From Escherichia coli (GTDB lineage: Bacteria > Pseudomonadota > Gammaproteobacteria > Enterobacterales > Enterobacteriaceae), in assembly GCF_003334785.1 (NCBI RefSeq), contig NZ_QOWV01000005.1: 64,000 nt of DNA, one strand, 5' to 3'. The position numbers were made by a program. Below, one piece after another: positions 33,001-36,000 of this stretch. The first letter of the stretch is position 1; each line of letters begins with the position of its first letter.

Positions 33001-36000
33001 TTATCAATGATGAGGGAATTAAATAGTTTTCATAATGAGTTACAGCACAACGTTGGGTATTGACTGAGCAAGATGAACGACAAGGACAACGACATCAGCC
33101 TTATGAGGAGCAAGAAAATGAAAGCAAATTCGAAAACGATCAGAAGGATGAAAGTTAATGTTCGGTCTGAGGAAAGTAAATCGAAACACTCATACGTTTG
33201 AAACCACTTTTCAAAATTGGAAAGAAAATGGCGAAGATGTTGCATTATTAATGCCCGAATTTAGTGCTAAATGGCTACCGATAGCAGAAGAGAGTGGCAG
33301 CTGGTCTGGATGGGTATTGCTTGGAGAAATATTTCCCTTAATTTCATCTGAGCTCGCTGGGATGGCTTTAATGCCAGAAACGGAAAGGTTAATAGGGGAA
33401 TGCCTCAGTTTATCCAGTTCCCCGTTAAATCTAAAGCATCCTGAACTAAAATATAATCGTTTGCGCGTAGGTAAAGTATTTGATGGAGTATTGAGCCCTG
33501 CTCAACCACTAATAAGAATATGGACAGGGGAATTGAATCTTTGGTTAGATAAAGTCACAGTCTGCCAATACGGAAACGCTCCAGCGTTAGACAAAAAATC
33601 GTTATATTGCTCCATTCATTTTGTAATTGGATTTAGTAAAACATGTTACAGAAGTCTTGTTGATATTGAAGTTGGTGATGTTTTATTAATCTCAAATAAT
33701 TTGGCTTATGCGGTTATTTATAATACAAAAATTTGTGATTTAATTTATCCAGAGGAGTTAAAAATGGCTGATCATTTTGAGTACGAGGAAGATTTTGAAA
33801 CAGATGATTTTGATATCAAAAAAAACGAGAGTGAGATTTATGATGAAAATGACGATCAGATGATTAATAGTTTTGAAGACTTGCCTGTAAAAATTGAGTT
33901 TGTTCTTGGTAAGAAAATAATGAATCTATATGAAATAGACGAACTCTGTGCAAAAAGAATAATATCTCTGCTTTCTGAATCTGAGAAAAATATAGAAATA
34001 CGTGTAAATGGCGCGCTAACTGGCTATGGCGAACTTGTTGAAGTGGATGATAAATTGGGCGTAGAGATTCATTCTTGGTTATCAGGGCATAATAATGTCA
34101 AATAGCATTTCGCTGATAGCTATACTATCATTATTTACACTATTGCCGTTTATAATAGCATCCGGGACATATTTTATTAAATTCTCGATTGTTTTTGTTA
34201 TTGTCCGAAACGCGCTGGGGCTTCAGCAAGTGCCATCAAATATGACACTTAATGGGGTTGCTTTGCTATTGTCAATGTTTGTAATGATGCCGGTTGGGAA
34301 GGAAATATATTATAACAGTCAGAATGAGAATCTTTCATTCAATAATGTAGCGTCGGTTGTTAATTTTGTTGAGACAGGCATGAGTGGTTATAAATCATAT
34401 TTGATAAAATATTCCGAACCGGAGTTGGTTAACTTTTTTGAAAAGATTCAGAAGGTGAATAGCTCTGAAGACAATGAAGAGATATTCGATGATGATAATA
34501 TTTCAATTTTCTCGTTACTCCCGGCATATGCGTTGAGTGAGATAAAAAGTGCATTTATTATAGGTTTTTATATCTATTTACCCTTTGTTGTAGTGGATCT
34601 GGTTATATCCAGCGTTCTGTTAACGTTAGGTATGATGATGATGAGTCCGGTAACCATATCTACACCGATAAAATTAATTTTGTTTGTCGCGATGGACGGT
34701 TGGACAATGTTATCAAAAGGACTCATTTTACAATATTTTGACCTATCCATTAATCCCTGAGGAAAAAATATGGACGATATTGTTTTTGCAGGGAATAGGG
34801 CGCTGTATCTGATTTTAGTTATGTCTGCAGGACCTATCGCAGTTGCGACATTTGTTGGTTTATTAGTAGGGCTTTTTCAAACGGTAACACAGTTGCAAGA
34901 ACAGACGTTGCCATTTGGCGTGAAATTATTATGCGTAAGTATTTGCTTTTTTTTAATGAGCGGATGGTATGGCGAAAAATTATATTCTTTTGGTATTGAA
35001 ATGCTGAATTTAGCATTCGCGAGAGGATAGCATGGGTGAGGCGATACTCTATCAGTTGCATAGTCTGCTGGCTGCTACAGCGCTCTGTTTTTGCCGATTG
35101 GCACCCACTTTCTATTTGTTACCATTTTTCGCCAGTGGGAATATACCAACAGTAGTCCGTCATCCAATAATAATAGTGGTATCATGTGCATTAGTTCAGC
35201 ATTACCACTATGAATTATTGAACTTAAATGAAATCGATATTGCTTTGTTCGCTGCCAGAGAAATTATCATAGGGCTGTTTATTGCATGCTTATTAGCATC
35301 CCCGTTTTGGATTTTCCTTGCTATAGGTAGCTTTATCGATAACCAACGCGGTGCAACATTAAGTAGTACTTTGGATCCGGCTACAGGTGTCGATACCTCG
35401 GAATTAGCAAGATTATTTAACCTTTTCTCTGCTGCGGTTTATCTTACTAAAGGTGGAATGAACTTTATTCTGGAAACTCTTTGGCAAAGTTATAATTTAT
35501 GGCCTTCAGGCAATTTTAATTTTCCTAAATTAGAGCCTTTATTCTCATATATTAATAACATAATGACTCATACTATCGTTTACGCAAGCCCCGTGATTGC
35601 CGTTATGCTGGGCGGTGAGGCTGTCCTGGGATTGCTGGCACGTTATGCTTCACAACTAAATGCTTTTGCCATTTCACTGACTGTCAAAAGTGCGCTGGCA
35701 TTTTTAATATTAATTATTTATTTTGGCCCAATACTGGCTGAACGAGTAATGCCGTTATCCTTTTTCCCAGAACAATTGCAACTATACATTGAGAAATAGA
35801 GTGTTTCATGGCCAATAAAACTGAAAAGCCAACACAAAAGAAACTCCAGGATGCTTCTAAAAAAGGGCAAATTCTAAAAAGTAGAGACTTAACCATCTCT
35901 GTAATAATGCTTGTGGGTACTTTATATCTCGGATATGTTTTTGATGTGCATCACATTATGTCGATTCTTGAATACATCCTTGATCATAACGCTAAACCAG

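Follow-up and report, generated by a model that had tools for sequence, protein, structure and literature searches.

The interval between the GH15 gene and epaO in an Escherichia coli ETT2 island as the scar of the 8.74-kb eiv deletion

The second type III secretion system of Escherichia coli (ETT2) has been described in several reduced forms. In PMC5422975, which cites Ren et al. 2004, the genes eivJICAEGF are said to be 'often deleted' in ETT2, and PMC11068852 lists ETT2 isoforms of avian pathogenic E. coli with deletions of 4.99, 5.68 and 8.74 kb. The DNA analyzed here (the window) is a stretch of 64,000 nucleotides of an E. coli chromosome around the tRNA-Gly gene glyU, taken from contig NZ_QOWV01000005.1. 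Its ETT2 island is located beside glyU, between actS/ygeR-GH15 and the epa/epr/yge/yqe genes. The subject of this report is the short interval between the GH15-family gene (ygeQ/pkgA) and epaO. With a probability of about 0.96, this interval is the scar of the 8.74-kb ETT2 deletion, which joins the 13th base past the stop codon of the GH15 gene to the middle of eivJ. An earlier note on this DNA had proposed that the interval is a deletion scar from which an inv-like eiv block was lost, and alignment to gene-complete ETT2 loci supports that proposal.

The GH15 gene ends with its normal TAG stop at 33024-33026 and the ATG of epaO is at 33158, leaving a spacing of 131 bp (33027-33157), which the note had put at about 130 bp. 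Window positions 32600-33600 were aligned to L003, an O157:H7 locus carrying all ETT2 genes. The left side aligns up to L003 3282 and the right side from L003 12020, the latter corresponding to window 33040 (TTACAG...). The deletion breakpoint is located at 33039/33040, where the junction string consists of TTTTCATAATGAG joined to TTACAGCACAAC. The left parent reads ...TTTTCATAATGAG followed by GCGGTCC..., the right parent ...CAACACAATGATG followed by TTACAG..., and the product ...TTTTCATAATGAG followed by TTACAG.... The exact microhomology is one nucleotide, the G at 33039, which can be assigned to either parent. To the left of the deletion, 13 nt of the GH15 3' flank were kept (33027-33039, plus strand). 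In O157:H7, 8,737 bp of DNA separate the two breakpoint bases, and in three other E. coli lineages one base pair less (8,736 bp); with E. albertii included, all gene-complete loci compared carry about 8.7 kb at this place, and the short spacing was found in none of them. The junction recurs to the base in all deletion-bearing loci examined (8/8). It lies far beyond chance: its two sides align 8,737 bp apart in O157:H7, and 1,938 complete genomes share it (see below). A promoter and terminator scan of 32700-33500 gave no terminator and two promoter-like sites that did not exceed shuffled sequences. The Rfam scan of 30000-36000 (E ≤ 1) gave the tRNA-Gly and a sub-threshold tpke11 match over that tRNA only, with no match at the junction, and RNA folding of the junction gave z = -0.01, i.e., structure not above chance.

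According to the annotation of L003, the lost block comprises a hairpin after the GH15 gene, a gene for a GhoT/OrtT-type toxin, eivF, eivG, eivE, eivA, eivC, eivI, eivJ1 and the 5' 451 nt of eivJ2. The products lost include an AraC-type regulator (eivF), the secretin SctC (eivG), the gatekeeper (eivE), the export gate SctV (eivA) and the ATPase SctN (eivC). About half of the ETT2 machinery genes were removed. As in the 8.74-kb isoform, the alignment to L003 finds eivF, eivG, eivE, eivA, eivC, eivI and the 5' part of eivJ absent and epaO kept. In E. albertii the order is GH15, GhoT/OrtT, eivF, secretin, InvE, InvA, ATPase, SpaM, SpaN, SpaO. Because this is the same order, the full block is ancestral and the event is a deletion here, not an insertion elsewhere. 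In the intact loci, the hairpin 3' of the GH15 gene has a folding energy of -19.5 kcal/mol (z = -3.9). The left break falls at the 5' foot of this hairpin, and E. albertii also has a hairpin there. The toxin gene encodes a 59-aa protein of the GhoT/OrtT family (ydcX-like) and is located between GH15 and eivF in the intact E. coli loci (L003 3336-3515) as well as in E. albertii (L013 1198-1377).

The DNA to the right of the breakpoint is the 3' end of eivJ, a member of the SpaN/InvJ family. This remnant (33040-33158, plus strand) has 39 codons followed by TAA, and no start codon. Window 33039-33158 translates to VTAQRWVLTEQDERQGQRHQPYEEQENESKFENDQKDES followed by the stop, and this sequence agrees with the C-terminus of O157 EivJ2 at 37 of the 39 residues. 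The assignment to EivJ rests on a match in the correct frame that ends at the eivJ stop overlapping epaO. In RefSeq, near-identical genomes have the same stretch annotated as a partial SpaN/EivJ gene. No family hidden Markov model matched the remnant, which at 39 aa is too short for one; the full-length eivJ of E. albertii carries PF02510 (SPAN). Three stops (TAG, TAA and TGA) are found in the eivJ frame just upstream of the remnant, which is therefore not fused to the GH15 gene. The complete eivJ is itself in two pieces in every gene-complete E. coli locus examined, O157 included (L003 11263-12138). One E. albertii locus has it as a single SPAN-domain gene of 291 aa (L013 9126-10001), and a second genome of that species (L014) has it split again. 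The splitting is in line with poly(A) frameshifts described in PMC4700944.

The first gene after the scar is epaO (33158-34105, plus strand), which encodes a 315-aa protein of the SctQ/SpaO family and is intact. The protein scores 489.5 bits against NF006018 (cut-off 223) and 195 bits against TIGR02551 (cut-off 100.8); membership in SctQ/SpaO/YscQ follows from full-length matches above the cut-offs together with a conserved N-terminus and start. The epaO start overlaps the eivJ stop (TAATG), and the overlap is identical in E. albertii. The N-terminus MFGLRKVNRNTH (MFGLR...) aligns without gaps to MFGLRHIDRDKH of the E. albertii orthologue, which is 50% identical. A Shine-Dalgarno-like AAGGA at 33144-33148 (plus strand), which probably serves in initiation, is 9 nt from the ATG, and both motif and spacing are also present in E. 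albertii. The start at 33158 given in the earlier note is thus correct, as the E. albertii N-terminus and the TAATG overlap agree on it, although RefSeq labels the window-type gene 'frameshifted' and places its start at 33118. The same label is attached to epaO in gene-complete loci other than O157. O157 lacks the A of window 33192, and its 328-aa EpaO (L003 12098-13084) begins in the frame of a small open reading frame (ORF; MKANSK...) before entering the gene body; the RefSeq label arises because the O157 protein was taken as the reference. The 988-nt arrangement of the window also occurs in three gene-complete E. coli loci of other lineages. Both epaO N-termini align to the ends of the NCBIfam profiles, which give no choice of the ancestral start, and for a comparison of starts PDB holds only C-terminal SpaO domains. 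The E. albertii outgroup settles the question: the ATG at 33158 is ancestral, and epaO of the window is accordingly intact. Judged from these sequence comparisons, the gene that most RefSeq E. coli genomes list as a 'frameshifted' epaO has the ancestral, intact form; the true frameshift variant is the reference EpaO of O157.

The distribution of the deletion was surveyed in 5,426 complete E. coli genomes with a probe of 201 bp centered on the junction, matches of at least 80% coverage being counted as positive. The junction was found in 1,938 genomes (about one third), including ATCC 8739; O104:H4 strain C227-11 also carries it. A query of 8.9 kb across the deleted block (L003 3200-12100) was covered to 80% or more in 972 genomes, and in many genomes to 44%. 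A second allele with a deletion of 4,995 bp was observed in L001 (strain Ec-042-T20-MAC, 4008-4669), where the 5' end of eivF is fused to the 3' end of eivA and eivC, eivI and eivJ are kept; this allele is seen in an additional set of genomes. The comparisons given so far demonstrate the breakpoint of the window's deletion, its size, the gene content lost, its direction and its wide distribution.

For the surviving genes the loss would have consequences. Judged from established knowledge of SPI-1-type injectisomes (those of Salmonella pathogenicity island 1), no needle is to be expected in the window strain, since secretin, export gate and ATPase are gone, and in the additional absence of the EivF activator no secretion apparatus should be able to form. 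The genes epaOPQR(S) would be deprived of their upstream operon, of the eivF activator and of the GH15 hairpin. Transcription of epaOPQR is then predicted to depend on read-through from the GH15 gene or on an unmapped internal promoter.

Other explanations of the interval and of its contents were considered. It is almost inconceivable that the short spacing is ancestral, with the eiv block inserted in other strains, or that the junction is an assembly artefact. The right side opens partway through eivJ, a conserved gene, without a start codon, the sister species E. albertii carries the full block, and 1,938 genomes finished independently of one another share the junction. No support was found for either variant, and both are rejected. 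A related question concerns the ORF at 33073-33201 (plus strand), which runs in the third frame across the eivJ/epaO overlap and which the earlier note had listed as a 43-codon ORF overlapping the epaO start and as a possible leftover of the deleted gene. The ORF exists as described: it is initiated by ATG and has 42 aa plus a stop (MNDKDNDISLMRSKK...). The leftover is real at the level of DNA, 33040-33158 being the 3' end of eivJ, but the ORF is not that leftover, as its frame is neither that of eivJ nor the conserved frame of epaO, and it is open in the undeleted loci L003 and L005-L007 as well. For this last reason the deletion neither created nor truncated it. That it nevertheless represents a genuine small gene, or a piece of the deleted gene that is still translated, is highly improbable. 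An ATG is present, a GAGGAG motif precedes the internal ATG at 33118, and in O157 the part from 33118 onward is annotated as the N-terminus of EpaO; however, the use of this ATG in O157 follows from the lineage-specific 1-nt deletion. Between lineages, 8 of the 42 residues differ in the ORF, compared with 3 of 39 in the eivJ frame, so that its own frame is the less conserved one; the equivalent sequence of E. albertii is unrelated, and no NCBIfam match was obtained. An ORF of this length is not above chance expectation: 119 ORFs that reach 40 aa or more were listed for the 20 kb around it. It is best taken as a chance out-of-frame ORF with no role, neither remnant nor product of the deletion.

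The formation of the joint and the origin of the allele are less certain. The joint may have been formed by illegitimate, RecA-independent end joining or by replication slippage, and the hairpin at the left break possibly assisted illegitimate recombination. A pentamer, AATGA, occurs on both sides of the joint, its copies being offset by one base. As the mechanism, simple slippage from one copy to the other was rejected: it predicts an extra T at the joint, giving ...AATGATGTTACAG, and this T is absent from the observed product, ...AATGAGTTACAG. Neighbor-joining trees were calculated from 1.6 kb of the left flank and 1.9 kb of the right flank for 13 loci, 8 of them deletion carriers. Two flank haplogroups are seen among the carriers, one with the window, BA92, MB06233 and ATCC 8739, and one with O104:H4, L008, L009 and L012 (the last three from two bovine sources and one human source). 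L001, in which eivC to eivJ are still present, clusters with the second haplogroup, and O157 clusters with the first on the left flank. A single deletion event with vertical inheritance by all carriers is somewhat doubtful. It would agree with a junction that is base-identical in 8/8 carriers, since the same event is unlikely to repeat itself exactly when the exact microhomology is just 1 nt, and with the single haplotype that the carriers share for about 200 bp on each side of the junction. The two haplogroups, with L001 in the second and O157 with the first on the left, nevertheless call for transfer or recurrence, at least among these 13 loci. As a tentative reading of the sequences, held at a little under even chances, the deletion allele, which occurs on two flank haplotypes that enclose a non-deleted allele, would either have been moved between lineages by homologous recombination or have recurred at a hairpin-directed hotspot. 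Within this reading, transfer of one deletion allele is more likely than exact recurrence, because the microhomology is only 1 nt. Recurrence as such, linked to repeats flanking the block or to the hairpin at the left break, is unlikely. It can draw on PMC5422975 (citing Ren et al. 2004), on the imperfect repeat CAtAATGA-G / CAcAATGAtG that flanks the block, on the stable hairpin adjoining the left break, and on the carriers not being monophyletic in the flank trees. On the other side, the exact repeat is just 5 nt long and out of register, slippage at AATGA would not give the observed sequence, and the carriers examined are without variant junctions. No observation speaks against the deletion as such. 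Less firm are the mechanism, which is weakly constrained because the AATGA repeats do not yield the joint by simple slippage, the descent of the allele, for which the trees give no single clean vertical origin, and the transcriptional consequences, which are predicted only.

The deletion scar is located in an island that shows further damage. Gene order in the window was read off the annotation that RefSeq gives for a 99.98%-identical genome; it begins with ygfT, continues with the xdh genes, actS, tRNA-Gly and the ETT2 island, and reaches lplT. Window positions 181-64000 are 99.95-99.99% identical to E. coli O2:H16 strain BA92 across the aligned length. The tRNA-Gly gene (glyU) was found at 31187-31257 by the Rfam scan. 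The GH15-family gene (31416-33026, plus strand) is a pseudogene, as determined by comparing its frame translation with the intact 536-aa GH15 protein of strain MB06233 (L002). It contains one in-frame stop at 32208-32210 (...FYVMEDS-stop-AWEED...), where other strains have Gly, and the 99.98%-identical RefSeq genome has it split into ygeQ and a hypothetical protein. The K-12-derived strains RR1 and J53 show 100% identity with the window as far as 32552, a position within the GH15 gene at which the match ends; they therefore share the nonsense allele. Downstream of epaO, the ORF list and the RefSeq annotation of the near-identical genome give the export-apparatus genes epaP, epaQ and epaR, which are intact, and epaS, which is frameshifted (together 34095-36928, plus strand). 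These genes now begin two genes downstream of GH15. The frameshift divides epaS (35808-36928) into ORFs at 35808-36539 and 36536-36928. Among the ETT2 genes up to about 43200, the near-identical RefSeq genome has a frameshifted orgA, a LuxR-type regulator gene (ygeK) with an internal stop and a frameshifted lytic transglycosylase gene. The lesions in epaS, orgA, the LuxR-type regulator, the lytic transglycosylase and GH15 agree with decay of the island. Two length differences were recorded elsewhere in the window. Between tRNA-Gly and GH15, MB06233 has 82 bp (54 + 28; L002 3264-3317 and 3324-3351) that are missing from the window at 31262-31269, just beyond the 3' end of tRNA-Gly. In the yqeB-arcC intergenic region (17818-17845), BA92 is about 180 bp longer, with a 28-bp repeat at the borders; this is probably a change in copy number of the intergenic repeat.

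The results matter mostly for correct annotation: the breakpoint is placed to the base, and the leftover 119 nt belong to eivJ. The 42-aa ORF should not be called a gene, and the RefSeq label 'frameshifted' for epaO should not be trusted. The ETT2 of the window strain is presumably unable to build a secretion apparatus.

Compared with known systems, the order of the intact ETT2 block plus the surviving epaOPQRS parallels that of Salmonella SPI-1 (invF-G-E-A-B-C-I-J, spaO-P-Q-R-S). Unlike in SPI-1, the inv-like half is missing entirely from the window and epaS is frameshifted, so that no working apparatus would be encoded. The other attrition alleles of ETT2, i.e., the deletion of about 5.0 kb in L001 and the large deletion of K-12, affect the same island and likewise removed apparatus genes. 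The 4,995-bp deletion of L001 matches the published 4.99-kb isoform; it lies inside the block, and its breakpoints differ from that of the window. The K-12 deletion also has a different breakpoint, as the match of RR1 and J53 ends within GH15. The closest counterpart is the 8.74-kb eivJICAEGF isoform, which has the same glyU island, the same lost genes and the same size as the deletion in the window (8,736-8,737 bp), and differs from it in nothing substantive. The deletion allele is already known and is very common in E. coli. To the known isoform this analysis adds the breakpoints at base level with their microhomology of 1 nt, the presence of a hairpin where the left break lies, and the frame assignment of the remnant.
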